Source: Raillietiella orientalis (lineage: Eukaryota). Taken from it: 64,000 nucleotides of DNA. Positions 24,201 through 62,870 of the stretch are shown piece by piece. Within the stretch, counting starts at the first letter, position 1, and each line of letters starts with the position of its first letter. The position numbers and the translations under genes are program-made. Below the pieces are notes generated by a model. That model ran no database searches. It was not told where the DNA came from and worked only from the letters and a program-made list of their open reading frames with translations. Where the stretch lies: contig JAYWIR010000002.1 in the NCBI GenBank assembly GCA_036172245.1, forward strand, positions 5,580,001-5,644,000. The letters run 5' to 3'.

Positions 24201-25482
24201 AACCTGGTGCTGCAAGCGATGCAGTGGTGCGACGGCTTCAGTCACCCCCTGCTGGTGGCGCTGTCTTCGTGGCTCCCTAAGCCCATCGAAGAGATGGTCA
24301 TCGGTACGTCCATTCCTGGTGCCAAGTGCGTTTCGCGGAGGTACACGAAATCGGTGCCGCCGACGGGTTGGCTGCGCCGTTCTTTCCGATCCAAGAGGGA
24401 ATTCAGTTCCGCGTTGCCGGTGCGGAAGGGGGGGCTGCGCCAGCTGGGATCTCATGGGCAGACCGGCGGGTGAACCTTCCTCAGCCGCGAGAGCATCTCA
24501 TCCTGTCCGGCCGCTTTCGTCCCGAAGGAACCAAGGCTAGCTCTCCTTGGATTTCGCCGCCGGCGCGCTTCGCTTCGGGGGGCGGAAATCGGACCCATGC
24601 TGGGCAGCGCGCGGGCTCAGAGATTTAGGGGTCGAATCGTCTCCAGCCCCTCCCTGGCCAGCTCGCCCCGCAGCTGGTTCCCGGCAGCTTCGCGGGATCC
24701 GCGCTCCGGCCGCGCTTCCGGTCGACCATTGCCCGCCATTCTGGAGCGTGTTGTGGGACTCGCGCGTCGCAAACTTTCTCTCAGAGACGACGTCATTACG
24801 GACGTCGCGTAGACGTCGGATGCAACACGGAACGCGTTTCCATCGGAAAAGTAATTACCCGGCGAAATGAATTCACGCTGTGCAGATCACCTTGGTAAGT
24901 GTTCTTAACGAAGGGAAACGTGCCGTCCACGTGATTTCGACTGCAGATTGAGCGCGCTGAAGAAGAGGCACTCGAGATTCTTCTGCCCGTCTTTCTGGCT
25001 GAGTTGGTCGGAAAAGTTAAGGAAAGTCTGATGGGTGTGCGCTTGGGGGAGACCGCGCCGAACAGATGCTGATGATGCACCGCTGCTGTGTTTGATGGGG
25101 GAACGGATGAACGCACGAACGCTGATTTCATCAAAGTAGGTCCACAAGTTGGGTCCGGTTCGATAACTTTGCTCAACTTTACACGGGAACTCTTCGAGTG
25201 CGCCAACTTTTTCCACTCTCGTTCGTTCATCAGTGGGCTCCTAAATCCAATTTTGCCATCCCCTTCCCATGTCTCTGCTAATCCAGCCTTAATCGCAGTG
25301 ATTCCTCACAATCGCCTTTCGACTGCTGGTTTACTTTCTCTGAACGCGGAAGTCTGGATGCTTTTCCTCCGGCCCCTGGCAGTGTGGTCCCGATTCTTTC
25401 GGTGTTCCTGGCTCGCGAGCTTCTATTTACTTTCCGAACAAGGTTAAATAAAAACGAAGAAAGCAAACACGCGCGCGCGCGC

Positions 25483-25513
<31 letters not shown>

Positions 25514-28500: not shown

Positions 28501-31500
28501 CTGCAAATGGTCCCTCATGAAGAGGGGAGGGAACGACCCACCGGGGGCCCCGACCACTCCCTGGTCGGGAGCAGCGCGCGCGCGTCGCCCGTCAGGACTC
28601 ACCGCCGCCTCGTGAGGGCACGCCCTCTAATCAGCGCCGTGCTATTACCCCTAGAAGGGGACGGAGGCAAGGACGAGTGGAACCCTCCGGGCCTCGGTTC
28701 TTCAGCCCCAAAGGCAACGTCAGCCGTGCCGAGGGCGCCTGCCAAAGCCAGGGGTTGTTCCGCGTCCTGGGGCGATTCGCTCGCTGCCAGCCGAAGGGCC
28801 TTTCCTAAGCTCTTCGGCCGCCGCAGATGATCCCTGGGTCTCGCCCCCCCCTGCATCTTCCAGGGGCTGCGGCGGCGGCCGGAGGGAATCAAAGGCGGCC
28901 CTCTCCCCTCCCCCCCTCCTCTTGTTCTTCCCCTGTAGCTGGGTTCCCTCTGCAGTGAGCACATCGCTCCCGTGACCTGCTTGACCTCCAACCGGGACGG
29001 ATCCACGTTCTGCAGCGGCGGGGAGGACAGCCGGATCATCGCGTACTCCATGCTGAGGAAGGAAGCTGCGGCCAAGCTGGACCACCACCGCGGACCGTTG
29101 ACGTGCCTGGCCATCAGCTCGGGCGAGGACATCCTGGCGGCCGGTAGGGGTGCGGGCACGGGGCGTCCTCGGGGAGGCAGCGGACGCGCCCACAGGCTCT
29201 CAGGACGGAACCGTCTCGCTGTGGTCCATGGACGCCTTCTCCCTGCTCAGCAGTGTGGACGTCCACTCCCCCGTGCGCTCCCTCCTCATCTCCTACGATG
29301 ATATCTTCCTGGTGGTCAGCTGTTCCGATGACAGCATCCTCATCAAGTCTCTGGCCACGGGGTCGGACGTCCACTGCATCCGCAAGCACATCTCCAAGGT
29401 AATGCCGCGGAGGAAGAGGGCTGGGGAGACTCTCGGACGCCGGAGGGGAGCCGCAGCCTCCCAGGCCGCGCAGCTACCGGCGGCGTCGCCTTTCCTCCTC
29501 TTCCTCCTCCCCTTTTTTGCAGGTGAACTCCATGGACGCGTCCCACGACAACCAGAGGCTAGCGGTCGGGTGCAGCGACGGTAACGTCTACACATTCGAC
29601 ATCAAGACCACGGCCCTGGTGAAGGTGATTTCGACCGGCAACTCCAGCCCGATCACCGGACTCAAGGTCACGAGCGACGACACTTTTCTGTTCTGCTCAG
29701 GTAGATCATGGGGGCGAGCCCAGTCGACTCCGCAGGGCACCCGTTGCCCCCAGACGAGGAGTCACTGTACGTCTACGACTTCGTGCCCGACCCGGTGCTG
29801 AACCGCAGCTACCTGCCCCCGAGCGAGAGCCCTCTGGGCAAGAGGAACTCCCAGGTCAACCACGACCTGGCCGTCGTGTGCATCGACATGGACCGCGACG
29901 GGACGCTCGCGGCTTCCGGTAAGGGCAAGGGAGGAAGGAGCACCTGGCGCTTCCTCCGCCAGCCAGCGGCGGTTCCTCCTCCGCCCGTCCTCCGCCCCTC
30001 TCCGTCGCCAACGCCCAATTCCCTCCCTCCCTCCTCCCCCTCTTCCCTTCCTGCTCCTCCTCCCTCCCCATCTTTCGCTCCTCTTCCTCCCCTTCTCGCT
30101 CCCCTGCGTCTCCTGGCAACGGGTCCATCGATCCAGCGAGACGTGTCCCTGCGTCGTTAAGGATTCGCGTCTCGTGCCCCGTAACGAACCTGCGGAGGCT
30201 GCTCATCCTGGAGAACTCCCTTCCGCCCCATCAATAAATCCTCCCAGGGGAACGAGACGCTCCCTCATTCCTTCTCGGGGAGCGCGGGGCCGCCCTTCTT
30301 GCGCGCTTTGCCTCCTCGCCTCCCTCTCCGGGACCCCCCCACTCGATGAAGCGAAAGCCGATAAAACTCCAGGGCGGTGTTTCCCATCCTCTCTGAGACC
30401 CCTAGGCCCTGAGGCATGGAGAGTTCCCAGGACGCCCCTCCTCCGGCGCGTGCCTACCACCTCGCCCTCTTCTGCTGCGCCCGCACGGGCGAGACGATTC
30501 GGGGAGGGTCTGCTGACTCCCGCACCCTGCGGGAGGGGGCAACGCCTTGGGCGGTCGCTCCGCAGCGACGAATCGGAGACGGCGGAAGGGGCGAACGGGA
30601 GGGTGCCAAGGAGACGCCTTCCGGCCGCATCCGCAGCGGCTGCCGGCGGCGATGCCTGTCGAAGGTCTCCCCTCGGAAGGGCAAAAGGGCTTGTGCCGGT
30701 CAGCAGCGACATCAGGAAGACCATCGATCCCCGCTGCATCGCCTGCGTGGAAAGAGGAAAAGGGAGCGGCCTCGCCCGGTCGACCCTTCCCTGCGGAAGA
30801 GAGTCGCCCGCCGGCCGGCCGAGAGGACGTCCGCTGGCGAGGCCCACCTCCGAAAGGCGCGGAGGTCTTTCGTTCCCCTCAGGAGGGGGGCAGGGGCCGA
30901 CCGGGATCCCCGGAGATCTAACCCGCCCGCCCTGCCCTTCCAGGTTCCCTGGATTGCCTGGTGAAGGTGTGGCATCTGTCGCGCAACGAGCTGCACTGCA
31001 CCCTCCGGGGGCACGGGGGCTCCGTGACTTCGCTGAGCTTCTCGCCCAACGGCTTGTTCCTGGTCTCCGGCTCCGAAGACACGACCGCCCGGATCTGGGG
31101 GCTGACTCTAGACATGACTGTCCAGGCCTTCAAGGTGAGCTGGGTGTCCCTTCTGAAGTCTCGGCGGATGGAGGGGGGGAGGAAAGGTCAGAGCCGGGTC
31201 GGGATGCACTCCAGAAACCCTCTGAGGCTGTTCCAGATCGCGGAAGTGATCAGCGGCCGACTTCTGAGGAAGGAGGTTCGCAGTGGGGAGGGGAACGCCC
31301 GCGCGCCATCTGTCTCTGGTCAGGCCCCGCTAAACAAAGGATCGCCCCCCGGATCCCATGTGGTCTCTGACCGGTGCGTGTCCCCTTCCCCCCTGCGAGG
31401 CGGGGTGATTCGCTGGTGCGCAGGTCACAAAAAAGACCGGGTTTCCAGGAAGAAGCCCATCTTTCTCCTTCCCGCGGTTTGCCAGCGCCACCGGCGCACC

Positions 31501-34500
31501 CGCGGGCTCCTCGGAACCGGCGTCCCTCGGCAAGATTCCGGAGGGTCAGGTGGAGGCTACCGCCGCCATCTGAGCTCTCCGGAGACGGTGCAGAGTCACT
31601 CGCGTTCACCCTGCGCCGCCACTCGATGGCTTTAAGAAGCAGCTCCCTGGCAACTGCAGTACGCGCCCACTGCCTCCCGCGCTCGACGAAGGACCAAGTC
31701 CTCTCTCTACTCTCTCGTGGGTCCGTCGCATGGACCTCGTGCCCCCTCGGCCCCCGTCCCGTCCCGCCCCCGGGGTTCGGCCGCGGAGGGCTCCTCAGAG
31801 TCCGGACGGGAGGCGCCCGAGGGCCGGCGAAGGGAGCGAAAGGCGGGACTCTTCTTATTGGGGAACGGCAGAGCTTCCGGGGTCAGCGAGCGAGGCAACG
31901 CGCCCCGACCTTTGCAGGGCCACAAGTTCCCCGTCTCCTGCGTAGCGACCTTGGAGGACAACAAGCGCATCGCTTCTGGGGACGTCGACCTCTGTGTCCT
32001 CATCTGGCAGGCGGACTCCTGCGTCATCGTCATGAGGTGCTCCGCCCCGACGTCGTCCATCACGGTGACCCATGACCTACTCCACGTCATCTGTTCCGGG
32101 AACACGCGAAGGCAGGCGCGCGAGCGCCGCGCAGCGCGCGCGCACTGACGGCACCCCTTGCAGCCTGTCCGTGTGGAGCCTCGCCAACCCGGAAGCGCGG
32201 TACCAGGTCTCCCACAACGACAAGATCACGTGCTTCACCGTGACGGCCAATTGCCAGTACCTGATAACGGGGTCCACGGACAGCTCCCTCAAGATGTGGC
32301 TGCTGGAGGGGGGGAAGCTGTCTCAGGTACACTCGCGCGCGAGGGCAGTGGGAGCGGCCCGTCTATTAGCCAGCGCCCTTCTTCCCACAGGGCGGTCCCG
32401 CATGTGGGTCGCGTCTTTCGGGGGCATCGGCTCGCCGCACCCGGAGGAAGAGTCAGCGGTGCACGTGCACCGACTCCCCGCCGCCACTGAGGTCAGCTCG
32501 CGGGGGAGTGGGGAGGAGGAGGGGAAGGAAGGGAGGAAGGGAAGAGAAGGAGAAAGGAAAGAAGAAGGGAAGAGGAGGAGAAAAGGAAGAGGGGGCCGCC
32601 AAAGAGTCCGGGTCTTCCTCTGCCCGGATGCACACGGCGTCGGACGGCTAGCGTTTCCTGATGCACCACTCGTCTTCCTCCGGCGTCGTCTCTGGGCAAC
32701 GACTTTTACTCTGTCCCGTTACCTTGTGCGTTTCGTTTGAGCTTCCCGCCGGCTGCGCCAGCTAAGACCGCAGTTCGTCGTGGCACGGAGATCGATTCCG
32801 GTCTCCAGGCATTGATGTCCTTTTGTGACGTCACATTGCTGCCTCGTAAGAGCGCGGCGGGCCATGCCAATAGCCCCCAGTGTTTCGTCGGGGAGCGCTC
32901 TGGCCTCGAGAGGTACAGCGGCAGCAGCACCCTCTCGGCGACCTCCCGTCCTACCCTCCTCCCTCTCCTCCCATCCATGGAGCTTTGAGTCTCTTCTCGA
33001 AGATCCGCCTCCGGCCCCGGGTTGCCCCATGGACCAACCGCTTGCCGCGTCTCCGGGTCCTCGGAACTTCCCCCTCCGACTCATCCCTACTCCCGAAGCA
33101 ACGTAGAGTTCGCAGCATCCGGAGACGCCTGCCGAGCACGCGCGAGCGCCTGCTCGTGCAGAGACATCTGCATGCGGGGAGGGCAACGAACCAGGAAAGC
33201 GGCTGCGTGCCCCGCTGGAGGCGCAGGCGGCCGAGAGGCATCTCGTCCGAGCGGCCCGAGGGCCTCCCGCGTGCGAGCTGAGTGTTGATTTCAAAGGCGA
33301 AGTGGGGAAACAGGCAGGGGATCCGGGGAAAGAGGGTCCCCTGGGTCGGGCCTCCCCCCGAGAGCGTCCGCACGCCTGTGGCCCTATCAAAAGGCAAGGC
33401 GGGGTCCGCGGTCAGCAACCTTTCTATGCTCCGTCGTGCCGGTCGAGATTCGCACGGAGCGAGGCCGCCCCTCCGCACTCCTGACGACGGAGCCAGTTCG
33501 CTCCTTCCCTAGCCCCCTGCCGGGAGGTCCTCCCGGACCGCGAGGCTCCAGACCGGAGCTTCGTGGGGGCATTCAGCCCGAGGCGACCATCGAAAGGCGT
33601 TGTCATGGCGAAGAAAAAGGGGAAAGGGAGGAGCGCGCGCCCGCCACCTCCATCGGGAGCATTCCGCTTCTTCCCGTGCCGAGTTCTGCGACTTCGAGCC
33701 GGCAGAGGGGGGGAGTGGGGGAGCAGGAACGCCGGCGTCCAGGAGCGTCCCCTTCATTCAGCCCCCTCCTTTGGGTTCCCTGACTCCGACGCCTCCATGT
33801 GACGGTTGTCAAGGGCACAAGAGTCCCAGACCTGCAAGGCGAAAGGGGGACTGACGAAAAAATTGGGGTGGGAGCGGACGGAAGGCAAAGACCAGGATGG
33901 TAACCCTATGGGCGAAGGTTTGGGCGCTGCCGCTGCTGCTAAGGAACGCGGGCCGCCGCAGGGCAGAAAGAAAGCAGACGCAGTCGCGGCCTCCAGCCGA
34001 GGGTTCGGATCAATGGCCCGCGGGCGGGCAGGCGAGGACCGGACTCGCCCACCGGTGCCCCCCTTTCGGTCCGTCAGGGGCGTTCCCCCTTTGCCTCTCC
34101 CGGAGAGGAGGGGCTGCTCTTCCTTCTTGCAGCGGGGTCGCGCGCCCCCGCCGCATGAGCAGCTAGGAGCGGGACCGAAAGCGGCTGCTTTGCCATGAGA
34201 GGCTTTGCCATGGAGGGAGACGAGAGGGATGAGGGAGTGGGCTCCTCCTGCGCGTGACGGTCGTCCGCGCCCTTCTCCAGCTCCTCTTCCCGATGGCGGG
34301 AGTAGCGAACGCGGGAGACGCTGAGCGCGCCTGTCCTGCTGGAGGGGACGCGTCGGGGAGGGCCGGGGCTGCGGAGCTCCTGCAGGCCCCGAAGGGGTCG
34401 TCGACAGAGCAGCGGGGAGGTAAAACGAGGAGCACCCGGGGGAGATCCGCCCTGCCCGCGTGGGCTCGCCAGGCTGACGAGAGGAATCAGCATATCCCGC

Positions 34501-36570
34501 AGGGCCAGCTTGGTTCCCCCGCGCCATCGGATGCCGCATCTCAGGGAGCAGCGAGGGTCGTCGCCGGGAGGGTGGATCCCTGCCGCCGGCCGCGCATGCC
34601 TGCTGCCTCGGGGGTAGAACCCCCTTTCCCTCTGACAACTGACGGGGGAAGCTGCGGGCGGCATCGGCAGACGAGGAGGGGGAGGAGGCGCCTTCGATCC
34701 CATCGATTTCTTTTAACCTCGCATCCGGCAGCCGATACCCGGGCAAAGAGGCGACTGGTGCGGAGCGGACTGCGGCCAGTGCCTGAGGGAGAAGGGGCCA
34801 GCCGGGATTTGGGCGAAGGAAAGGAACGCGGAGGCTTTCCGGCTCGGATGGAGAGAGTTCCGCCTGTCGGCGCAGCGACTCCCTCGGCGGAACCCCGCTC
34901 CGAGGAAGGGAGGGGGAAGATCGCCCGCGCGTGGAAGAGAGCTTGGCGGCCGCGCGCCTGCGTCAAACAGCCCCGACGCCGTTGCGAGCCAGGCCCTCCC
35001 CGCGATGCGTATTGCAGGTCCTGATGGGCCACGAGGAAGAGGTCACGTGCGTCGCGACCTCCCCGTACAACCAGTCCCTTGTCGTGTCTGGCTCGAAGGA
35101 CTGCAGCCTCATCGTGTGGGACGCGGAAGCGGGTGCGGAGGTGTTTGTCCTGGAAAGTCACAGCAAGCCGATCACATCGGTTCAGCTGACGGCCGACGGC
35201 ACCATCGCAGTTTCCGGTAGACCTGCTGGCGCCAACCTGCCGGCTTTTCATTGTTGGTGCCTGTCTTTGTGATGCAAGGTTCCTTGGACTGCATGTTGAT
35301 CGTCTGGAACGTCAGTCAAGGAAGGGTCATAACCCTCTTCAATCTGTACATCCCGATACTGGAGGTCGCCATGTCTTACGAAGCCTCGAGGGTCGTCGTT
35401 CGATTAATCGATAACAAGAATATGCCGATTCTGTGCTTGCACAACACCCCGGCTCAAGGGCTGGCGGAGCTGCTGAAGAAAACCGAATCCGAGAAGCCGA
35501 CGGTGAAGCTGGTGAAACTCGCGGGTGAGCAGCGCACGCTCTTCAGAAAACACTGACTGTTGCTGCCGCCGCACTCAGACACGTCGAGGAAGTACCCCAA
35601 ACTGGAGAAAAGAGGGCTGCTGAAGAAGGAAATATCCCTGGACACGTACACCTGGCAGAGGCGGTACGGCCACATCTGCGCTTCCATCGAAACTCCCCAG
35701 CAGACTTCCTCCGAGGAAATCACGCCACCACAGTCCTCTGCGGCCCAGCAGGTAACCCCGAGGTCGCCCTCGGTTGCTGACAGATGTGCTCTGCACGAGC
35801 ATACTGCGAAATGTCAGCGGCCGTCTTCCTCCTCCTTCCAGCTAGCCGCGCACTTTCTAGAGTACTCGATACTTTAAACCGGCCATGTTCCTTGCACAGC
35901 TAGTGGAAGTGGGGATGGGCCCTTGAGAAAAACAGACAGCAAACACGCGTCGTCAAGATGCACTTTCGCCGCGCAAACAACACGGGCCCTCTGTAGCCAA
36001 GCTGGGCTTCCGGGACCCCACTCCAGAGAAAAAAGAAAAGAAAAAAAGGGGTACACAGACACAGGTGCCGCACAGAGGCGCTTGCGCAGTTTCGAGACAA
36101 CCACGATCGCTTCTTTGATTTGCATCCGCCTTGTTTACACCACGTTTTTTTATTCTTCGCGTGCGCGCAGAGAGCTTTTTCTCCGCGCGCCCTCGGTGCA
36201 CACATCTCCTGGTCCCGAATGACACGCTGGTGACCTTAGGGAGGGAAACGGACTGCCGAGAATCAGGACGAGCACTTCGAGAACTTGCAGGCGACGTGGA
36301 AGAAACTCGATCCGGCCACTCGGAAGAAAAAGTACTTCGCCAACGCGGCCAAATGGAAGGTCAGTTTCACACATCCCGAGGCGGGTGGGGCAAGCCATCT
36401 CGTTCCGTCCGCCGCAGACGTACGACGCCTTGAAAGTGATAACGAATTCCATGAAGGAAACGCTGCCCTCTTTGTCGACCACGTACGAAGGGAGCTGCGG
36501 GGAAGACGCCCTCTTCTCCAACAGAGCCACTAACGTCTACGTGAATTCCAAAATATGCACCATTCTGTGA
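6292..36570 (+). CDS. NACHT and WD40-repeat protein (NWD1/NWD2/qui-1 family), 26 exons, ~1832 aa; the first exon is the least certain
   Basis: Hand-assembled exons with consistent phases: 6292-6360, 6653-6854, 7725-7804, 11279-11392, 15469-15662, 16417-16556, 17023-17426, 18065-19268, 19322-19519, 21406-21513, 23791-24024, 24178-24303, 25924-26055, 28307-28427, 28956-29143, 29196-29398, 29523-29700, 29754-29918, 30944-31134, 31918-32111, 32164-32326, 35018-35216, 35279-35524, 35579-35751, 36240-36359, 36418-36570 (sum 5499 nt). N-terminal motifs RIVVISTFPDFVHERRVL..VIPEL and FYELDENSIPPVY; Walker A GPRGCGKT (18233-18256); Walker B VAVFLDDV; NPLQLAPELIAWL; many GH...GS.D..(V/I)W WD40 repeats. 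Confidence 0.9.
8974..9400 (+). mobile_element. Decayed retroelement gag/ORF1-like relic in intron 3 of the NACHT-WD40 gene
   Basis: CFLCDGPFHHRADF is CX2CX4HX4C with the last Cys changed to Phe (TGC>TTC). It is followed by a repeat reading NNGGRPSRSR in one + frame. GC is lower than in the flanks. Confidence 0.4.
9143..9275. repeat. 42-bp tandem repeat, ~3 copies
   Basis: caacaatggagggcgcccgtctcggtctcgt at 9158 and 9200; a diverged copy starts at 9242. Confidence 0.9.
22566..22716. other. 151-bp AT-rich island (17 G+C of 151) bounded by TGATGT...ACATCA
   Basis: Direct count. Internal direct repeat tatgttacat (22591, 22611) and a (TTAA)n run; the flanks are strongly GC-rich. Confidence 0.9.
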
Positions 36571-49144: not shown

Positions 49145-49720
49145 TCAGATCACTTTTTGAGAAGACTGTGGATGAATGATATTGATGACCCAGCTTTCGT
49201 ATGGTGAGAGACGATTGTCTGGATTCTCCGGCTGGCTGTCGGTTTTCCTTGTGACGTGAGCTGCATATATATCACTTGAATATCGGGTACACACAGCCAC
49301 CATCCGGTGCCTCAGTTCCAACGGCTTCTTTGGTATTCCTAGATCTTGTAATACTTCTACATTACCAGGACCCCAATATCCCAGAGAGTCAATGATAAGC
49401 CGTAGTGCTACGTCCTTGTATTTTGTATTTTCCTTCCTTGTTCTTCCTGGCTGTGCTGGATGCCTCTTTAGTATGGGCAGCAGACGTCTAGCACACATAT
49501 CTGGTATCTGGTTTCCTTTCTGAATGATCAGATCCGGTTTTAGGGTGGAATTTGTTCTTGGGACTCTCTGTTTTCTTGACACAAGACTCCACTTTGCTTC
49601 ATCCACTGCGACCTTTCTGATTATTTCCTGAATCGCGTCGTAAAGTGCCATGGACAGAGGAACGTGTTTCTTAGGTCTATGAATGGATGGCCTAGAATGA
49701 TGCTTTCTTTCTTCTCAGTC
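49145..49720 (-). mobile_element. Degenerate 3' end of an RLE-type non-LTR retrotransposon (R2/NeSL/Utopia-like), copy 2
   Basis: ORF 49145-49651: YDAIQ, LKPDLII, KENTKY, IIDSLGYWGPGNVEVLQDLGI, SSDIYAAH match restriction-like endonuclease C-terminal motifs. Confidence 0.8.
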
Positions 49721-50004: not shown

Positions 50005-51460
50005 TTATCCCGTCGCGCCCCCATATACGTCCACGAAGTCTTGGATTTGATGAGCACCCCAAACTGTCAACATTGCTCGATTGGTTTCAAGAAGCGGTTT
50101 GAGCCTCTGACTGATGATGATCTCAAAGGCTGTTGCAAAAGACACCAGAACAAAGCGAATTTTTGAACGGATGTTTACTCCGTACCACTCGAGTGGAAGT
50201 TGCTGGTGTTTGCACTGTAACGAGAAAACCAGGATAATCCAGGGTAATCCGTGGGTGCTGTAATCCGGACCGGTTTTGAACGTGCCCACACCACAATTTG
50301 GAATCTCATCTTTAGTTCTGGTGCATTTGTAGAAAAACTTTGGAGTTCTAGTGTTGTCAGTGACATTAGGCGACTGTTCCCTGAAGACTTGGCATCCCTT
50401 CTTGAAGACCGGTGCAAAGAGACCAGGAGGAGTGGAGTCCTTCAGTGAACAAATAGGAGGAAGTTCTTGTATTTTCCATATGGAGAGGAAGAATTCTCTC
50501 CTCCATCTAGAGAGGAAGAATTGGCTTGAGTCCACTTTTTTCCTTTCCACTTTCAGAGAGATCGACTCCAGGTTGTGGATGGGGCGTATCAGGATTGCGT
50601 CTGTCCGCATTGTGCAGGCCCAGGTGTCCACTACTTAGAACTGATGTGTATTGTAGTTTGAGGGATGGCAGGAGATTCAAGGGTGTTCCACAGAACGGCA
50701 ATCTTTCTCGGGGGAAATCCAAGCGTCTTCGGGTTGCGGTTGCGAGGCAACAGGGAAGCCAATCCCTGGCATCCGACCGAGGGCCTGAGGATGTCTCTCG
50801 CTAGAAGGCAGGCACCAATGCTTCATTGCATTTTCATTGAATAAAGCAAACTTTTTCAGTAGGACTTGCATCTCCATCCTTTCCAGCGTTAGGAAGCCAA
50901 AGACGACACCCCTTCTCGTGGAGAAGACGTCTTTCGGCCACACCTTCGGTCTAGCGGTGCCCTACAATGCCTACCGAGGCATACTACGTCAGGAATCTGT
51001 GGGAGGGTTGAAATAAAGAAAACAGGTTCAGAGAGCGGGCAACGCAGACATTCCAAATTGAGGCCATTCCGGCAAGACGAGACTGCCATAGAAACGGGAA
51101 TAGCGCCCTTTGTGCTTTCTAGAAGAAGCTGGACCCGACATCTGCGGTCCAGAAGTCTCCTAGGATCACACCAAAACATTTCCCATGGAAACGACCTTGG
51201 TCCTGTTCACGCTGCTGCCAGCTCACCGGCGTGTCATCTCGTGGAAACCCTCAAGAGACGCCACCGGGGTCCACATAAGTAGTGAAAGAGCGACTTCGTC
51301 CGCGTAAGCTGACACGGTCGGAGTACAAGGACAGGAAGATGGCAGAAAAGTCGGTGTTTTCTGAAACTTGTTCAGTAAAAACTCGAGAAAAGTACTAAAA
51401 GGGTAAGTATTTGACGAAACTGGATCAGCAAATCCTTTCGGCCCATCCTCCGGCACACGG
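50005..51460 (-). mobile_element. Decayed L1/Tx1-like reverse transcriptase fragments
   Basis: FLEFLLNK...TVSAYADEV (YADD-like motif near 51300); RRGVVFGFLTL (resembles GGLG); IISQRLKPLL near 50100. Heavily frameshifted. Confidence 0.55.
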
Positions 51461-51469
51461 CCTCCGTGC

Positions 51470-52200
51470 ACGTGGCTGCGTGGACGAGAATCAACGGCAC
51501 GCGCTTGAAAGAAACGCGATGTCATCAGTACTCCAATTACTATCGCTGCTCGTTGAAAGGGATCATGGAACGCCCCAGGAAGATCCCATGGGTCCAAGGA
51601 ATCCTTCTTGCTGCGATGCTGCCCACCCTTCGAGGGAACAGTGACAGTGACGGCATGACAAGTTGGAGGTGTCCTGTGACATCTCAGGACGGAAAGACCA
51701 GCTGCGTTATTGGACAGCACGTCAGCTGGCACATGCTTCCAAAGAACATGCTCTTTCCCGGAAGTAGCAGGATACGGCATTGCAAGTGGTGCATTGGTAA
51801 GTACCATGCCACACTGGGACTGGACCAGGGGAAGCGTGTCCCCGCATCGTGATAGGTGCGGCTGCGAAAGGGAAACCTTCCCACACCTGATTTTCGAGTG
51901 TGCTGCCCTGCGGAGTGTTTGGCAATGTTTGGAAGTGTTCCTATACTCAGTGAGACACGAAGCGAGCAGAGTGCTGAGAGACTTCCTCACTCTCGGAGGA
52001 ATGTCGCCTGCAGCGTCGCTGCAGGAGATTTTCCAGTATGACCTATATCCACAATTTCCAACAGTTGTGTCTTGTGCAAACACATTCGAAATACGTGGTG
52101 TTTTCCAACACCTGTTTTGAAGCAGAAATGCCGAAAGCGCCCTTTCGAAACAAAGTATCACCAAACCATCGCTGAACATTTCTTTAGGATCAACGAGGTA
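51470..52200 (+). mobile_element. L1/Tx1-like ORF2 C-terminal zinc-finger fragment
   Basis: RCGCERETFPHLIFECAALRSVWQ matches the C..C...ET..H....C......W motif of non-LTR ORF2 C-termini. Confidence 0.7.
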
Positions 52201-52532
52201 GCATTAAGAAAAACAGAAGCGAGAATAGATGAAGGTGCAGCGGATGCGTCATCATTTCACTTCCAAAAGCATCCTGTATTCCTCTTCGGAGGGTGAAACA
52301 ACTAGGGAGGTTCCTAGAACACAATTGGGCACATTTCAGAACTTCTCACTGCATCTGTCGCCAGCATTATCGCAATCATTGCACCGTTCACTCTTTTTGA
52401 AAATTTTGTGCACGTGGATTCTGAATCCTCGTTACCCGGACTGTGCGTGTTCATTCGGTCCATTCTTCGGCAAATCGAAAATCTAGGACGGAAAGCAGGG
52501 AGCCCATTCATGACAGCGCCATTAAGGAAAGG

Positions 52533-54735
52533 TCAGTACTGCGGAAGCATTGCTCCATGCGTATCCTCGATCCGTTTACGATCACGCGCCTGTGCCGTTT
52601 GGCGTTCCTTCGCAATTTCTTTCATGGACTCATTGAGCCACTGGCGCAGTTCAGATGCCGCTCTTTCGTGACAGCACTCCGGAACGCGCGTTGGAAGGTA
52701 GCTGTATTCTCTATTGCTTCGGGTCACGGCTCGAATTGGGTGAAGCGCGAATACGCGAGCACGCACACCCGACACGATTCCACAGAAAACATCAAATCTC
52801 AATACGATAATCGGAGTGTTCTCGGCGTTCCGTGTTTTGACTCGTCTAGTTCCAGAATGCACTGCATTTCTCCGGAAAAGAGCACAAAGATGCAGTGGAA
52901 CCAAAAACAAAACGAACCTCTAAAAATGCAAGGCCACAAAATGACTCCAAGAAGAATGGTCAACGAAAGAAGTCCAAAAAGAATAAGGATGATCTTCGTG
53001 AGCGTATCCAAACCTGGAAAATACAATATTTAAGCGATGAGCTTCCGAAATATCCTGAAACTGCGTCAAGAGCGTTTCCTCAATTAGATGCGCAAATGAT
53101 TTTGAGAGATTGGAGACGGAATCATGAGGGTGTTCCTGAGTTGTTTTACTCACTCCATTTTCTAGTTTCACAGAAGGATCCTTTGTATTCCGCAGGACAG
53201 CTACAATTTACTCCACTCTTAAACTTCGCTTCGCATTTCCCCCCGTTCATACACGGACATCCTAAGGCAGAAAGACACATAAGAGCCCCTTGGCATCGAG
53301 AAGCATTCGAAGTATGGCACACTCTCGGTTTTTCTTTTTTATCGTGGGACAAGTTAGCATCCGTGTTGGTCACTTGGCAAACGCACGCTTTCTACAAAAC
53401 CCCAAACGTGGGAACAGTTTCCCTTTTTCAAGCTGGATCAACTGTTCCAGTTATTCGCTGTCCATGAAATCTACAGTCCAATGACGTCCAGGTTTCCATC
53501 TTGTGATGTGAACAGCAACTGACGAATGCAAGGGTGGAACTTACTGCATAGCAAGAATCCTGTTCTTTCAGCCTTCAAGCAGTAATGTTGGCACTCCGAT
53601 GTGTTCGTGCATCCACAGCCATCTGGATAAGGCGCTCGATGGCACTGAACTAGGAGCAAGTACCGTTTACTACTTTGAAATCCTCTTTCGAGGTAGATGC
53701 AAGCTACAGAAGAAATCATTACCGCACTTTTTGAAACCTGTTGCAAACACCAGCAAACAGGAACGGCTGGCGCACTGGTCGTTCGTCGTGCAAGCGCAAC
53801 CATCGGGTAGATGCAATCCCAAGCACAGACCTGATTTCAATAGGCAAAAAAAAAGGTGAAAGCATCCACTATTTTCGCAAATGCTGTCGACAAAATTCTC
53901 TCAAAAGGAACTTCAACTCGCTTAGCACATGAAAGATAAGGAATCGCCAGCGACGCCCTTGCATGAATTGCGTTGGGCTTGCAGCAGCACCCTTCGAGTG
54001 CTTCCAAACTTTGTACCAAATGATTTATTTTTGCGTCTTTACGATGAATGCATGGACACCCCTGATTTTCAGTGCTTCTCCTTTCGAAAAGATAAGGTGC
54101 CGACTGCAATCCGCAACAGTGCCGTCATTCTTAGATGCACGACCAAAGTCTTCGTCCAGGTCTGCCACGCACACGAATGACAGTAGCGGCGCTATGAAGG
54201 AGCTACGAAATTTCGGAAGTGCGCCGACGGCGGAGGGTACAGAGGGAAGACTGGGTGCGTTTCTTTCGGCTCTACGAGCGAAGCATCACTTTCGACAGAT
54301 GATTTTTGGAGGACGTGCAATGGGAGCGGGTAAGAAAGCAACAAGCGCGAGTTTACTTACTCGGATCACATAGTCCTTTGATGCAGTGATGGAAGCAGTC
54401 GCCATCGTCTTCGCAGGGACATCCTGTAGGTTTCGGAATAACAGTGCAGTCCTCTGCAAATCGTTACATTACTGAAGTTTATCCGTTCGAATTTTTTCTT
54501 CTTATATGAAACACGAGACTTCTACTTTTCGTCACACCCACAAGATCTTATTCTGACAGCGGGTTCGATTCACAAGGCAGCTTCCGTCATCTCTTTCCTG
54601 TTCACTCTTTTGCCTGCCATTATCTGGACGCTGACGCGGTGATTCTGAGCTTATGAACTGGGCCTCACGCTCTCTTTTGAACCCTTGTCTGCCACTTACA
54701 GAAGCAAGCACGAATAATTGATGATAATTAATGGC
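52533..54735 (-). CDS. Cys-module + EGF + single transmembrane helix + cytoplasmic tail protein (a separate gene, or the 3' part of the upstream array)
   Basis: Modules CTVIPKPTGCPCEDDGDCFHHCIKGLC and CHRAPYPDGCGCTNTSECQHYCLK; EGF exon 53261-53154 CPCMNGGKCEAKFKSGVNCSCPAEYKGSFCE; TM exon 53013-52918 IILILFGLLSLTILLGVILWPCIF; charged tail ending at the stop at 52533. Confidence 0.72.
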
Positions 54736-56259
54736 TAGGTGAGAAAAGGAAGCACTTTTTCCGAGAAGGAAACTAACTGAAGTTTCAGACTTTCATCGTT
54801 CACTTCCCTTCAGAGAACGAGAAATGCTATCTGGCATGCCACATTTCTGATGCAAAATTATCGTCGCATTTGATCTTTCATCAGGCATCTACATAATGAC
54901 ACGTTCCTCCTAAATTAGCTGTGGTTTCTTTATCAACAAATCTTTTGACAATGCAGTTTTGCTCGTTTGCGGAAAGCATCCATCAGTCTATGAGAAAATC
55001 ACATGAATCGAGGTGAGAGGAACACGTTTTTCCAAGAAACAGTGTAATCCAAGGTGAGTCGACAAATAAATCTTCATTTTGAGAAATGCCGATGTGTGTG
55101 CAGACGAATGAGAGAAAGCGGTTCATTTGGGGCAGAAAGACCATCTTTTGGATACATCTCTTCCAGAACACTTAGGGGTACATTTCTTAAGGGTCTTCTT
55201 ATCTTTACTTAAAGCATATTCTCTGGGAAGAAGAGCAATTTTTTATTCCTGTGACTTCCTGGGAACGCCTGCATCTACATAAGCACTGCCCACAATCCTC
55301 CTCTTTTGTTCTCCAACTAGACTTCATTCAATAGGGATCATTGGCTAGAAGACAATAGTCCTCTCAGATGGAACATCAAGAACAAAAGAATTCTTTTTTG
55401 CTTCTTCCTATAAATCATCAATGAGGTTTGCTGTCTCTTAAGAGGGACTTCGTTTCCCAGCTTGTTTAAGTGAATTGTTCCGTGGCAGAAGGCACCCTAG
55501 ATTCACTTGCAGATGGTACTTCTTTCATTAAAAGAGATATTTTCTCAGTAGCAGCAGTTCTCATGTCAGGAAGAACCACTACTCAAATCAATCCTCTTAC
55601 TGAATGTTTTCTACTACATTGGTCCATAGGGAGAGATGCTTACTTTTTTGGCACGTCAAACTCATAGATTTCCTTTGACTCTCCTATGGTGTTGATTTCA
55701 CAAATCTTATGGAACATTGGCAAATTTCATTCTGACTGGCACAACAGAAAATGTCGCTTCCTGATCAACCACCGGCAGTATCGAGTTTGGCATGAGTAAA
55801 AAAAAACGGCATCAAATTGACAAGTGGAACAACTATTTCGCTAGGCCTGTTTTAAAGATGAAGGTTCCACTAATGTTCAGAAGATAGGACTGAGTCCAGA
55901 ATTTGCTTGTGATCACCAAGAAGCCGAAACTGCAGAGAAGCGTAACGAAACCGGAAGGAGAGTATCGAGCAAGACCTGCGGAAACCTGTGTACGATGTAC
56001 AATCATCATGACTGAAAGCACAGCTTTACACCAATACAAAAACGGAGAAGTCAAAAAACTGAATAATTAGTAAAGCATTTGAGATTCCTGTGCTTTTCTT
56101 CAGAGCAACCTCTTTCCCCTCAGATTCGTTCTAGTCTCAAGTGATCGCAGCTGCGGTCTTTCCCGCTTTTCTGCATGCACAGTTTTATGCGAATTCTCGA
56201 TTCTCGACTTTTAAGTGCGAAATGTCTACTTCAGTGCATAGCCAGCCAGATGGGTTTCA

Positions 56260-59200
56260 GTCAAGGCAGAGGATTGCAGGGCCAACTGGTGATCGAGATG
56301 ACACTTTTGAATTTTCCGTTTTCATTCATGGGTTTTTGTACAGTCTGATTCTGCTGGTGACCTGGGTCTTCAGAATAACGTCCATCATAAACTATCAACT
56401 AGGAAAGTCCCACGGGAACGACTCTGTGCCACATAAGGAAACCTGCGAAACGGGCCATGTACACGGTTCACGTCATCTGGCATTACGCACAACTCCCTGA
56501 AGGAAACGTGCCCGAAGCCAGTGACAAAACACACGTGTCATCAAGTCACTGCACACGGATGGAATGGAGAGTGTCTCATTCGCCCGATCATCATAAGCCT
56601 TCGCGGTTTTTCCGTCTGCAGAAACGGTAAATTAATGGTTAACAAACTCCCGGAAATCGTTGATGCCTTCTTTCAACTATAAATCATTAAATCTCTCTCG
56701 TCCAGGAAGAATCCGAGCACAGCAAAGTCCTGACTCCAACTTTAACCGACATACAACTGAGAGAGTCATAATTCGTATATCTTCATGGCCTGGCAATACT
56801 TTTGTTAGATAGTTGAGAGCAGTAACGTTCACAATGACAAAATACGGGATCGCAATTTCGAATTGCACAGGCAGTTCAGAATCGGCAATTTTCGTTGGAA
56901 TTACGACAGTTTGTTTATTTGCTAGCTGCTTCCATATACAAGTAGGCCGTAGAACGCAAAGAGGCGCGAAAAGGCAAGATTTCTGTTCAAGAGATGCGCA
57001 ATTTGGAATAATGACTTTGTAAAACCTCCCCCAGTTCCATCTTAGTTGAACTACTTGGTCAACATTCTCAATCTCACCGCAAGTTCCTGTTGTTTTGTGG
57101 CACTTCATCCACCTGAGGCACTGAATATCTTTAGAGCACGGGCATCCTTCCGGTAAGAGTAGGGCCAAGGAATGTCCGATGTGAAAGCAGTACTCTGAAA
57201 CATCAAACGACAGAATGGCAAATTTTGATGAGAACTCGGGTTTCCTGAGGGACGAATAGCTTCTTTTCGCGGTAGACAGTCGCAAAAAAGGAATGCAAAC
57301 GCGTTCTACCTGCGCAACTGAGGCCTTTCGGAGACTCGCTCGGGACGCATTTTTTGGAGAAGCACTGGTCCGATACGGTGCAAGGGCAACCGCTTGGCCG
57401 CCACTTGTGCTTGGAACATCCAGAGTCTGGAATGCAAGAATGCTCACTTGAACTCTCAAAGTTAAAGAGGAAAGTTTGAATTGCGATCGTAACTGCGGAT
57501 TCACGCCAGACTGCGCGTCCACGGCCACACACAAGTGTGTTTGTGGATGCGCAGCAGTGTGAGTGCTTCGCAAGATGGTGGATTCAAACGCTTTCTTCCC
57601 TCCAGATCATGGAGACACACGTTGAATTCCACTTGAATGAAATCCAAAGAGAATTTTGAAGAATAGTCGGGAAACACGAGCAGCTCCAGGCTCTTTCTCA
57701 GAGTACCTGTACAGCGGCGTCTCCTGCAATGGTGCTTGCAATGTGCATTGGAGGTACAGGGACAACCAGGAGATCGAGGAGCAACATCACAGTTTACTAG
57801 AATAAAAGAACCATTAGCACAAAGAAGGCTGCTTCGCTTCCAAGAGGAGAAAGCGATGAAATGTACGTACCGCAAACTTTTCCCATCTTGTTTCTTCCAC
57901 ATACGTTGCTTTTACAGTCCTTCGGAGACTTGCATTTGCAGGAGGGAGATTTGGATGGCACGTTGCAGTTTGCATCTGCAACATGGCATTTAAATTAATC
58001 TGGAAAGGATGCAGGATTATCGGATTGTTCGTTCCCCCCAGAGTAACAAGGAATCGGTGGCATCGGCCAGCGACAGAGAGCGGAATCACCCTGCATCAAC
58101 CCGTCACATGGAAAACCACGATCCTTGACATTCTAGTGGAAATACAGAGACACTAGAACAAGAAACGTCTTCAAGGTAAAGAGGGAATAAAAAGTTCATC
58201 CGGAGAGGACGCGAAACAGCTAAAAGCTGCGTGAGGATTCATTCACGAAGAATTTTTGCAAGTCTTTTGCAGCCTCCTTCTCAGCATGCAGACTCCTCAG
58301 CACCGCGACTGCGTGATAGCCTCAGTTGGTCAACTCACAGCATGTTCCAAATACTGCTGCTGGTTCGGTTTTCACACAAAATCCAGAGTAGCACTGCTCA
58401 TCTGCCACACAAGAGCAGCCGTCCTGTTTTCTCTTGGAACACTTGGCTGCGGTGGAAAGCGGGAATGAGCCACTTGCAGCGAGTTTCCGAAGCCTTCTGG
58501 CCATCGGCACGTCTACACGTACCTCTTCCTCCGCAACTCAGAGAACCTGTCTCTTCGTTTCTCTCGCAGAGGTTGAAGCATTCTTCTGGGGAGGAGCAGA
58601 CGCACCCATCCGGGTAAGGTGGAGAGCAACCTACGAAGCGCTCGCACTCTCGGCTCGCGACAGCAAGGCTTACCGCATGCCTTCCCGCTGCAAAACTTTT
58701 CTTCGCATTCGCCGGGATGCGTACAGGGACATCCGGGAGGTCTCACATGCTGCTCACAGATTCCTGAACAGGATGCAAGCAAAGAGAGGACAAGGAAACG
58801 CAAATTGAGAACACCGAATGCACGTAGCGGGCACAACCTCCATCGCAAACGTATCCTTTCGAGTGAATTATGCACACAGGGCACTCAGGACTGCAAGGGC
58901 AACCACCGTTTTGGGGGCATGCTGACCACAATACGTTTGTAGAATATGGCAAGGCTGCTTGAATACCTGTGCATTTCTTGAGGTCATTAAGAACCGAGAG
59001 GCAATGTTTGTTTCCGCAGCTCTTTGAGTCGTCGCAAGGACAGCCCTCAGTGTTCCCATGGGAACATTCATCCTCAAAGCCTGAAGGTGCGCTTTCTGAA
59101 CACGCCAATCATGGAAAACGAACTTGCCATACCGCAAATGTTGTTTAAGCACAAAGAGTTCAGGCAGTGACTGGGATGTGCACACCTACATGTGGGTGAT

Positions 59201-62200
59201 TTGGACGCCATCTGTGTACACGTGTCTAATAAGCAACAAGTACGATTGGGAAGCCCTGGAGTTGTACTGACCGTCATCTAGGAAGCAGAGATTGTCAACG
59301 CATTTTAAGCTCAGGCAGGAATCAGGATTGCTGCATGGGCAGAAGGGACTGAAGGGTGTTTTCTTGCAGTCTCCTGAAAATAGAGTTTGAGCTCGTTGAC
59401 TACGCTATCTTGACGTAGCAGGTCAAAGAAAAAGAAATCTGAGGGATTACACTGGCTTGGTTCAAAGACTCTAGCAAGACTCGGCGAAGTTACGATACTG
59501 ATGAGAAACAGATGGCGCGAAGGACTGTAATGCAAACAACTTCTTACCGCAGTAGCTAGAACCTTTGACAGTCACACATTCATGCCGGCATGCTGTTTCC
59601 TTGTTATAGCAAGTGCATCCTGGAGCTCCAGAGAATTTGCAGAGAGTGTCTAAAAGACAAATGATTCAAAGATCTGATTCCCGCTCTGTGAAAAGGCATG
59701 TGCAATGTGAGCCCAAGAGCTCCTGTGCTAGCCCTGCACTTTGCGCGCTCTAATTTCATGGTCCAAGAAGGCATGCAATTCGCACATGGCAAAAGCCGCT
59801 TGATGGATGCATTCGTTTCGGGAGGCTTCTTGTTTTCGCCAGAGTGCCGTTTGGCATTCCCTTACCTGGAGTGCACTTCAGCTCGCTTAGATTGCATACT
59901 CCTTTACACTGTCGAGAGTTACTGCAAGAGCAACCAGGGGCGAAAGGGTGCTTGCAAGTTTCTGAATCTCACATGAACGAACCGGGAGAGGAAAAAGAAA
60001 CCTACGACAGTGACAACCGCTGCAAATCCTTCCCGCGAGGCAGTCACTATTGTCTTCGCAATTGCACGGTCGTCTGTTGCATTCAGAGGAAGCCGCAACT
60101 GTTGGAAGCCAGATTAGTTTGTGGAAAACCATCAAAAGGTAAAAAACATTCAACATTCCAAATGCTACTAGCGTGCTTCTCTGGAAATGCTAGCATGTCA
60201 CGCTAGAATGTCCAGCGTCTCGACACTGGGCCCATACACGAGTCTGAAGCTGACGGTAATTTTTCAGAGCCACAATCAGATTATTGGCCTTTCTCGTGTC
60301 CATGAAAGCAGCAAGTACTCGTCTGTGCTTTCCAACAAGTGAGGTGCACATGGCAGACAACAAGAGAGCTCAACAACAGAAGACTCGATTCGGAAACTGC
60401 AACGGACGGCTACTCGGAAGAAGCGATGCTTTCCAAACTGCAGTCACTTACCGCACTTTGCTTTGTAGCATACTCCGCAAGCACACTGAGAGTGTTCCGA
60501 GCAGTCGCATTCCGGAGGAAATGGAGGATTTGGAGGGCACGTTAAGCGACCTAGGGTATCACATTTTGTTTTTTCCTGGTTTTACATTGAGAAGTTGAGT
60601 GCATTCTTGCACACGACAAGTCCGTGGTGATGAGGAACTTGATCAACCGCCTACATTTCACCGTTACTATATGATTCAAAAGATCAAAGTTATGAGAGAT
60701 ACACATTTTGTTCGTTGCTGATCAACTGCACAAACTAAAAAAAAAAATAGCCTTCCTGTTCCGGCTGTGATTCAGAAACAGTGAACGAACTGAACGCGTG
60801 TTTCTTGTGATCACCGCGCACGTGCATAGGCTCGTCTTTGCAGAAACTTCTTACTCTAAGAGACAAACAAAGATTCGAAAAAAAAAAAAAAAAACAGCAG
60901 GCCGGTAGCTGCTGGCAGTCCGATGGAACAGAAACGGAATCTTGAATGCAGTTGCAAACGTCAGTACTCACTGCATATTCCTTCTACGCATCTCAAAGAT
61001 TTCTTGCAGTCTTCGTGCTTTTCACATTGGCAGTATTCGTCGCGATTCTCTTTACGGCAAATGTCTACAGAAGATCAGTTTCTTCTTCGACTCAAATGAT
61101 AAATGGTTAAAGGGATTTGAAGGGAACGAATATACCCCAGAATGAGTTGAAAGGTTGAAAACAATTCTGTCCTACCACAAATTCCGTCGATACATGTTCC
61201 ACTTGCACACTGGAAGCTGGATTGGCAAGGACAGTGGGGTAACGACACTTTAGCGACGCATGCATCATCTTCAAGGCATAGTCCAACTGCTGAGTTCCTT
61301 TCTAATGACCGTGTCTTACCGCAAACCCCGCTGAAGTCATCGTAGTATCTGCAAATCAGTTTCCCCTCACAACTCGAGGGAACTGCACAAGGGCAGTTTT
61401 TTGGCGCTGGATACACACATTTCACTAAACGGAAAACTCATTTGCTTAATGCTTCTGATGGGTAGATGGAATAATACCGCATGGGCAGCCAACTTCACAG
61501 CGCTTGGGATGGGGACAGAGGCAAGTGCTTCCTGTCGATTTGCACACAGCAGATGGAACTTGCAAAACGACCATCACAACAGTCGAACGAGAAAGGACAA
61601 ATGAATCCGCTCGAAAAGTCGCACCATCGAGTTAAGCGGCAAGAAATATTCAAGAACGCAAAAGTGAACGGAAATTTGGGTCATGCTGTTGAATAAATAC
61701 TGAATAAATGAGCAAACATGGGGAGGTTTCGAGTGATTCAACGAAAAAAGAGGAAGGATGAACGTAGTTTCAAAACATGAGTTTATCGGAACTGATTGCG
61801 CACAATTCAATGATCCGAAATGCGAAGGTGTTTCAGTGGACCGGGACGAGAAGGATCAGTGGCAAAATGAAGATCCCATCGTCCGTGTTGTCTGACGCTA
61901 CTGGAACCTGATGCTACGAAACCTATTCTTGCAGGTGGACGGTTGAAACATACTGTATATCTATCTATAGACGAACCCACGAGTATCTACGAGAAATACG
62001 CACGAATCCGTCAAGGCCCATTCTGACTATGGAATCTCTGTTTCCCCAGAGTGCCATTTGCTTGCAAGGCGTAAATTGATCTCGAGCGATATGCTATCAA
62101 AAGAATACTCACCACATATTCCTTTCGTACGAGTCCTTACACAGGAGTAACCTAGAGGACAAGATCCACCTGACTGAAGACGCTTTCCAGTGCTGCAGTA

Positions 62201-62870
62201 GTAAACTAGAAAGAACAGCGCGCGGTGTTCAGTTCCCATGAATCTGAGTTCACGAGTGTTTTCAAGTCTCGGATCAAGGAGATGCACTGATATGCTTTCA
62301 TTTCTGCGCACAAAAACCGTCGATTCTAACTGACGGCCGTTCCGAAGGGCTTTAGCAAACTCAGCGAAAACGCGGGCAACTTGCGCTATGAATTCGAAAG
62401 AGAAAAGCCTGCACTCGACGGAGCCGGTAAACTGGATGACTTTATGAATCACTCAAAGAATCTGCCACTTTCTTTTAGTCGGATTCCAGTCACATATTGG
62501 GATCGAGTCCCTCGTGTTTTCTCGGTTGCTTTGGAAATAACAAGTTGCCGAGATTGCAGATTCATCCCCATTCAGCGATCACTTTTCACGAAGGCATTCA
62601 TATGAGAAGAAGCAATATTTAAATTCAGTGAAGTAATCATCTTACTGCATGCTGCTGCCACTGAATCACATCTTCCTTCGCAATCATCAGGAACTGCACA
62701 GGCACAGTTCATTCCTCCTACTTCTTTGGTGCAGGGAGCTAGCAAAGGAATGCATCGTTGAAAAGACAATTTGCGATACCCTGCACCTTCCAGTCATACT
62801 TTGCAAACAGATTTACTTGGTCTTGTGCACTTAAGAGTGACGCCATTCAATGCTTGGCGTCTACCTAAAA
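56260..62870 (-). CDS. Multi-exon cysteine-rich repeat protein (about 20 small Cys-module exons); both ends uncertain
   Basis: GT-AG-bounded phase 1-1 exons, e.g. 61424-61320, 61064-60972, 60550-60452, 58763-58674, each encoding C-x(6-9)-C-x-C-x5-C-x(3-5)-C-x(4-11)-C. Confidence 0.75.

Follow-up and report, generated by a model that had tools for sequence, protein, structure and literature searches.

A predicted giant gene in Raillietiella orientalis sets a hemicentin-type head on a membrane-anchored stalk of cysteine-rich modules

A 64,000-nucleotide (nt) stretch of the Raillietiella orientalis genome, here called the window (G000:C2:5580001-5644000 of a 210-Mb genome), carries on its minus strand an array of small cysteine-rich exons. 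The array makes up the 3' half of a single gene of 45 kb. Its features suggest, with moderate confidence, a single very large gene for a membrane-anchored protein: a hemicentin-type head mounted on 41 small cysteine beads.

Inside the window lie 24 cysteine-rich exons at 62738-53545, bearing out the original prediction of more than 20 minus-strand mini-exons; all five peptides quoted there are present in the minus-strand translation. Its description of six-cysteine modules fits 21 of the 24; two exons encode seven cysteines (60550-60452 and 60098-60006), and one encodes four (62205-62113). Lengths range from 81 to 117 nt, and every one of the 24 exons is, as had been proposed, divisible by three and of phase 1-1. 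This pattern exceeds chance: when identical splice-site cut-offs were applied to all three symmetric phases at 261 module hits from eight loci, a strong AG..GT pair occurred in phase 1-1 at 162 hits, and in phases 0-0 and 2-2 at none. The predicted ending also holds, since an exon at 53261-53154 passes the Pfam EGF cut-off (E 2e-5; 25.2 bits, cut-off 21.5) and the next, a transmembrane exon at 53013-52918, is the strongest hydropathy peak. The last coding exon (52313-52252) encodes the final 19 residues of a cytosolic tail, where a YxxL and an ExxxLL motif overlap, and then a stop. The prediction had instead placed its last exon in a frame ending at 52533; this frame is not conserved, and it is intron because only 52313-52252 is conserved downstream of the transmembrane exon.

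The array does not begin near 62870, as first proposed: beyond the window, another 17 module exons are preceded by a 12-exon head (minus strand, G000:C2:5644094-5677405). Modules extend to C2:5655846 and paralog-conserved exons to C2:5677405, about 33 kb past the window. (A candidate 5' exon near 62863 was discarded; it aligns with one paralog only, which carries a deletion in it.) The gene model joins 57 exons into an open frame of 2,093 residues, 268 of them cysteines, closed by a single terminal stop. In order, the exons encode a signal-like hydrophobic stretch; a von Willebrand factor A (vWA) domain (four exons), two beta regions (three), an immunoglobulin (Ig)-like domain (two), and a CUB-like domain (three); then 41 modules, M01 to M41, one per exon, along with one 21-nt linker exon; and finally the EGF, transmembrane, and tail exons. 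The window copy has no lesion across 6,282 coding bases, at a synonymous distance of about 0.8 from its nearest copies. In all six intact copies of the family described below, the CUB-like exon ends on a phase-1 donor, without a stop, 502-860 nt before M01, and no signal peptide precedes M01. Moreover, the gap at 57077-54454 is an intron, of 410-3,767 nt in all six, which leaves the proposed paralog pair unsupported. The broader proposal of an extracellular, membrane-anchored protein, built through duplication of a symmetric one-module exon, is supported.

Several features place the head near the hemicentins. The Pfam VWA_4 profile matches the first vWA exon of paralogs C13 and C97 (E 3e-4 and 2e-3), that is, two of three paralog exons, or two of four copies if the window copy (C2) is included; genome-wide it yields three matches, all at family loci. 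The best single-exon match covers profile positions 2-48 of 169, at 20.8 bits against a cut-off of 27. A motif resembling a metal-ion-dependent adhesion site (MIDAS) reads DxSxS in C2 and C17 and DxTxS in C97, C29, C13, and C6a, with conserved PET and SDA motifs later. The gap between vWA and Ig is 227 residues, versus 222-226 in hemicentins. By eye, it contains look-alikes of hemicentin-region motifs II, III, and IV as given in PMC3707829; motif I was not seen. GBD_Hemicentin matches the beta region at E 0.15, and Atlas clusters with GBD_Hemicentin score 0.85-0.86 (both leads only); a search of the genome with GBD_Hemicentin gave no match. The first half of the stretch between vWA and Ig was modelled as a jelly-roll (mean predicted local distance difference test, pLDDT, 66), with Z 9.8 to a GOLD domain and a subtilase C-terminal domain. 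The Ig-like and CUB-like domains are presumed, having been assigned by eye. A word-based search with the vWA exon alignment scored none of 8,000 candidates among longer proteins, a null that counts as weak evidence.

The stalk module follows the pattern C-x7/8-C-x-C-x5-C-x3/5-C-x4/13-C. Across 36 six-cysteine modules the most frequent successive spacings are 8 or 7, then 1 (36 of 36), 5 (32 of 36), 3-5, and 4-10. The prediction had not recognized the module as a named domain, and the Pfam check agrees. Among 64 modules scanned (36 of C2 and 28 of C89, atypical modules left out), no match was better than E 0.009 (LEAP-2, four members); EB matched none, Dickkopf_N one (E 0.16), and DUF7107 one (E 0.067), none over cut-off, and Dumpy_DPY matched one (E 0.069). 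An AlphaFold2 model of M33 (pLDDT 84) has a C-terminal hairpin, and aligns over 27-35 residues with inhibitor cystine knot (ICK) peptides, SOTI-III, colipase, DKK1, and LEAP-2. The best Z is 3.9 (root-mean-square deviation 1.9, 34 residues aligned), with 3.0 for colipase and 2.8 for DKK1; the best Foldseek E is 0.22, and the best ESM Atlas score, 0.81, is a lead only. This weakly suggests a knottin- or colipase-like mini-domain, with scores too weak for membership. A module profile run against PDB sequences gave three matches at E 0.1-0.75, none significant. The colipase fold consists of two disulfide-directed hairpins, according to 10.1101/485722. Six of the 41 modules space their final four cysteines as DPY does, Cx5Cx5Cx4C; in M07 these are the only cysteines. 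Because M07 lacks cysteines 1 and 2 together, a pairing of 1-2, 3-5, and 4-6 is hinted at, which would make the module a disulfide-directed hairpin (3-5, 4-6) with a loop closed by 1-2.

This module may be unnamed, but it is not unique. Searched against 1.84 billion representative proteins, the module profile found 19 matches, eight with the full pattern and none with this architecture. The CxC six-cysteine pattern recurs in 48 tandem copies in Amphibalanus amphitrite XP_043214807.1, and in 10 and 3 copies in the bacterial FecR-domain proteins MEW6202761.1 and MEW5945610.1, respectively. Unlike the present family, the barnacle and bacterial proteins, all uncharacterized, have near-identical repeats or scattered copies, other architectures, and no vWA head; their likeness could reflect either shared ancestry or convergence. 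Bacterial or metagenomic proteins (P0002, P0011, and P0009) also contain six-cysteine modules, sharing a PDGCxC motif with M33, M40, and M41.

Genome searches found at least eight further copies, on C17, C97, C29, C13, C89, C6 (two), and C73, as well as fragments on C11, C40, and C43. Six copies are intact (C2, C17, C97, C29, C13, and C89) and retain all 41 modules with the same cysteine counts. C29 reads open like C2, and C17 and C97 do so with one corrected donor; in C89, head exon V2 and the 21-nt linker exon could not be placed. Three copies are decayed, with stops or frameshifts: C6a, in which M14-M17 are deleted; C73a, in which M19-M31 are deleted and others missing; and C6b, a recent C89-type copy carrying one 26.7-kb deletion. 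All observed changes in module number lie in these decayed copies; no intact copy has gained or lost a module. (A 5.2-kb segment at G000:C73:358100-363300 matches the C89 copy's head region at 99.5% identity, and is either a recent partial duplicate or a second haplotype.)

Each bead keeps its place. Among the six intact copies, the best cross-paralog match of a module lies at the identical position in 1,222 of 1,230 cases. With cysteines set aside, identity is 0.19 among modules within one gene and 0.48 at the same position between C2 and C89, the most distant copy. Since six copies keep 41 beads in one order, the sequences favor a stalk of constant length over one assembled by variable splicing. 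The stalk evolves under purifying selection: dN/dS is 0.15-0.21 in all 15 pairs, and 0.25-0.34 without the cysteines; in the vWA and beta regions it is 0.13-0.60 where defined. Non-cysteine identity is 0.53 for vWA, 0.56 for beta, 0.56 for Ig-CUB, 0.54 for M01-M17, and 0.64 for M18-M41, the part in the window, whose bootstrap interval (0.61-0.66) does not overlap those of the other regions. Heads are 34-73% identical between copies. The vWA tree pairs C2 with C17 and rejects three other region trees (approximately unbiased, AU, p 0.001-0.003); the proximal stalk in turn rejects the vWA tree (AU p 0.017). Moreover, C97 and C29 are 94% identical in Ig versus 71% in vWA. Together, these conflicts suggest exchange between paralogs.

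How, then, might such a gene be used? The original prediction held that combinatorial skipping of module exons could give the stalk many isoforms, with secreted as well as anchored forms. Its premise is sound: all 41 exons are symmetric, and just 11-20 of the 861-903 skip junctions per copy create a stop, none of them by skipping a single module; the only single-exon skip that does so is loss of the linker. Phase 1-1 symmetry, however, is the usual mark of shuffled animal modules, as described in PMC6547436. Acceptors of module exons are slightly weaker than those of other exons (7.1 versus 8.5 bits, p 0.11), as skipping might have it, but their donors are if anything stronger (7.9 versus 6.9 bits, p 0.03). 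Divergence at four-fold sites is ordinary (0.44 in modules, 0.45 in other exons), apart from a low value for M25 (0.19, on 53 sites) that would favor skipping. Nor do the introns look regulated: no 10- or 12-mer is common to C2, C13, and C89 in any of the 40 stalk introns; repeated intron words stay at shuffle level, except for a T-rich 8-mer (seven introns versus a mean shuffled maximum of 4.7); and there are no long inverted repeats, although short or degenerate elements of the Dscam docking type could escape notice. M31 has a weak donor with a tandem second donor 3 nt on (58838-58835), which would create a junction stop in C2, C17, and C97 but not in C29 or C13, a possible route to a soluble form; no alternative last exon is conserved. 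Finally, in every one of the six intact copies the neighbors M24 and M25 each keep an extra, seventh cysteine, suggesting an inter-module disulfide that skipping either exon would break. With module number and order fixed as well, combinatorial isoforms look improbable, although occasional exon skipping may occur, and neither combinatorial splicing, nor a paralog pair, nor a secreted form leaves a sign in the genomic sequence. The same low likelihood attaches to a more elaborate scheme, a variable receptor system in which hemicentin heads serve as endocytic receptors and are recombined between paralogs, knottin-like stalks are varied further through regulated in-frame skipping, and the M31 tandem donor gives a soluble form.

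The exon chain, the open frame, the fixed module order, purifying selection, and the tail motifs come directly from the DNA. These fit, as the probable though far from certain reading, a constitutively spliced, lineage-specific family of long-stalked, probably endocytosed adhesion or capture receptors. In such a model, one constitutively spliced gene, from a family with six intact copies and three decayed ones, would yield a type I membrane protein some 2,100 residues long. Its hemicentin-derived head, made up of vWA, the "hemicentin" beta region, one Ig, and the CUB-like domain, would sit on 41 disulfide-locked mini-domains, an EGF domain, and a membrane span; the MIDAS-like metal site of the vWA might serve to bind ligands, whether matrix or foreign. 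The stalk would be a protease-resistant spacer with position-specific bead surfaces, an estimated 80-100 nm long if extended (2-2.5 nm per bead). The predicted tail motifs are conserved, YxxPhi in seven of eight copies and strict [DE]xxxL[LI] in six of eight; both are AP-adaptor-binding motifs (PMC2173715; 10.1101/2023.07.24.550379). Through them, the tail may recruit AP clathrin adaptors and thereby cycle the protein between surface and endosome. Variety would arise through gene duplication, divergence, and paralog exchange, and not through exon shuffling in mRNA. Alternatively, and distinctly less likely, though a contender, the same single protein could be a static structural tether, comparable to dumpy, MUA-3/MUP-4, or a membrane-bound hemicentin, that pins the epidermis to the apical matrix or cuticle rather than cycling, perhaps with a few regulated splice forms. 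A hemicentin-type head would suit a tether, a fixed length fits a spacer, and the DPY spacing in six modules, one of them a bare four-cysteine module, recalls dumpy, likewise a giant modular membrane protein, whose alternative splicing was demonstrated by RT-PCR (PMC2930355). Yet there is no ZP domain, no EGF-DPY alternation, and one EGF only; moreover, a purely structural role leaves unexplained six copies with such divergent heads and conserved sorting motifs. Highly improbable is a third possibility, that head and stalk are two co-transcribed genes, or that the window copy is a young pseudogene. It draws on the start exon, which was not found, on the window copy's lack of AATAAA after its stop, on the three decayed relatives, and on tight operon-like gene pairs in this genome (SERAC1 and SLU7 lie about 100 nt apart in the window). 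Against a split stand the phase-1 donor and the lack of a stop in the CUB-like exon, 502-860 nt before M01, and the absence of a signal peptide ahead of M01; against a pseudogene stands a lesion-free frame despite that synonymous distance.

Some of these observations also count against the receptor reading itself. With the start-codon exon of the window gene not found, head-to-stalk continuity rests on exon phases and conserved linkage in six copies, which support it. AATAAA occurs 122-160 nt past the stop in six of eight copies, the exceptions being C6a and the window copy, which has none within 400 nt. In the head, the window copy's vWA exon matched no Pfam family, vWA and GBD scores fall below their cut-offs, and Ig and CUB gave no profile match. 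C89 has lost its MIDAS-like motif, and C17 both tail motifs. No region shows positive selection (the sole ratio above 1 is based on dN and dS of 0.02), and an initial impression of faster divergence in the head than in the stalk as a whole did not survive exclusion of the cysteines, leaving the head not uniquely variable. The AU test, for its part, was run with fewer replicates than the program asks.

The minus-strand exons of the window run as follows; each has six cysteines unless stated. M18 (62646..62738, 93 nt, phase 1-1) is followed by M19 (62113..62205), an atypical four-cysteine module with a weak Lustrin_cystein match (E 0.018, below cut-off), and then by M20 (61478..61558, 81 nt), M21 (61320..61424, 105 nt), M22 (61176..61268, 93 nt), and M23 (60972..61064, 93 nt). 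M24 (60452..60550, 99 nt) and M25 (60006..60098, 93 nt) are the seven-cysteine pair. M26 (59866..59961, 96 nt), M27 (59548..59649, 102 nt), M28 (59272..59373, 102 nt), M29 (59133..59225, 93 nt), and M30 (58967..59080, 114 nt) precede M31 (58838..58921, 84 nt), whose weak donor is non-consensus in the five copies compared. Next come M32 (58674..58763, 90 nt); M33 (58523..58630, 108 nt), the module modelled; M34 (58339..58446, 108 nt); M35 (57871..57975, 105 nt); M36 (57707..57796, 90 nt); M37 (57310..57426, 117 nt); and M38 (57078..57194, 117 nt). A basic patch spans M34-M37, with a mean net charge over six copies of +5.7 in M35 and +4.8 in M36. (The possibility of a furin site in M36 was set aside: the four-arginine run occurs in four of six copies, and is located between cysteines.) The intron at 54454..57077 (2,624 nt), which is no gene boundary, has parts that match contig C67; beyond it lie M39 (54361..54453, 93 nt), M40 (53723..53830, 108 nt), M41 (53545..53649, 105 nt), and the EGF-like (53154..53261), transmembrane (52918..53013), and last coding (52252..52313) exons. 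Outside the window, the intron upstream of M13 (G000:C2:5647160-5647980) contains, by eye, a long inverted duplication, likely a foldback element.

Around the gene, the minus strand carries SERAC1 (42900-40800) and, about 100 nt past its stop, SLU7 (40743-36600), with TTTTCAG just before the SLU7 ATG, an operon-like arrangement. Identity to the proteins listed, most of them from arthropods, reaches 63-69% for SLU7 and no more than 54% for SERAC1 (44% to Trichinella SERAC1); neither has a close relative among them. Genome searches for SL1 RNA and Col_cuticle_N gave no match, and the positive controls likewise went unmatched. G+C content changes abruptly along the window: it is 54-68% over 1-36000, 32-34% at 42-48 kb, and 43-51% over the module gene. 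The G+C-rich part contains a plus-strand gene (15500-35300) with NACHT/AAA and WD40-like regions, presumably NWD1/NWD2-like. Two minus-strand open frames downstream of the module gene (49145-49714 and 51223-52203) have no significant Pfam match; part of the latter recurs near paralogous loci, and is probably repeat-derived.

Together, these results describe a predicted protein that joins a head otherwise known from a secreted matrix protein to a membrane-anchored stalk built of an unnamed six-cysteine module; purifying selection maintains it in six copies. A curated family could be defined for this module, which barnacle and bacterial proteins share, and the intact copies supply 246 natural versions of a single small disulfide scaffold. 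Should the tail function as predicted, the lineage would have made its own invention of a long-stalked capture receptor. This architecture was not found in the protein collections searched, or in full-text searches of a literature library that lacks most subscription journals.

Parts of the protein nonetheless have known counterparts. The head resembles those of hemicentins (him-4, HMCN1/2) and VWA7-type proteins: a signal, a probable N-terminal VWA_4-type vWA domain, a 220-230-residue "hemicentin" region with a jelly-roll, and then Ig. In hemicentin, a matrix protein, some fifty Ig modules are combined with EGF/fibulin ends (PMC3707829). The present protein has none of the fifty-module Ig series, the EGF run, or the fibulin C-terminal module, and, unlike hemicentin, it has a membrane anchor: one Ig and a CUB-like domain lead into 41 modules, after which come a single EGF, the membrane span, and a cytosolic tail. 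Long strings of small disulfide-rich modules also occur in Drosophila dumpy (DPY module), avian CREMP, and Chironomus Sp185, and the last four cysteines of the present module are at or near the DPY spacing Cx5Cx5Cx4C. However, DPY and CREMP modules have two disulfides, to which the present module adds an N-terminal cysteine pair with CxC; compared with dumpy, there are no EGF-DPY-EGF triads and no ZP domain, and the modules are divergent and position-fixed. The knottin (ICK), disulfide-directed hairpin, and colipase-Dickkopf mini-folds align with the AlphaFold2 model, but with weak scores; ICKs typically have an adjacent CC, which the module lacks. Dscam1-type clusters also place many small related exons in a surface-protein gene; here, in contrast, there is no trace of docking or selector elements (short ones could escape), and the exons encode successive, position-specific domains in one frame. 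Set beside these systems, the gene appears to be a real new variant of the exon-shuffled mosaic membrane protein.

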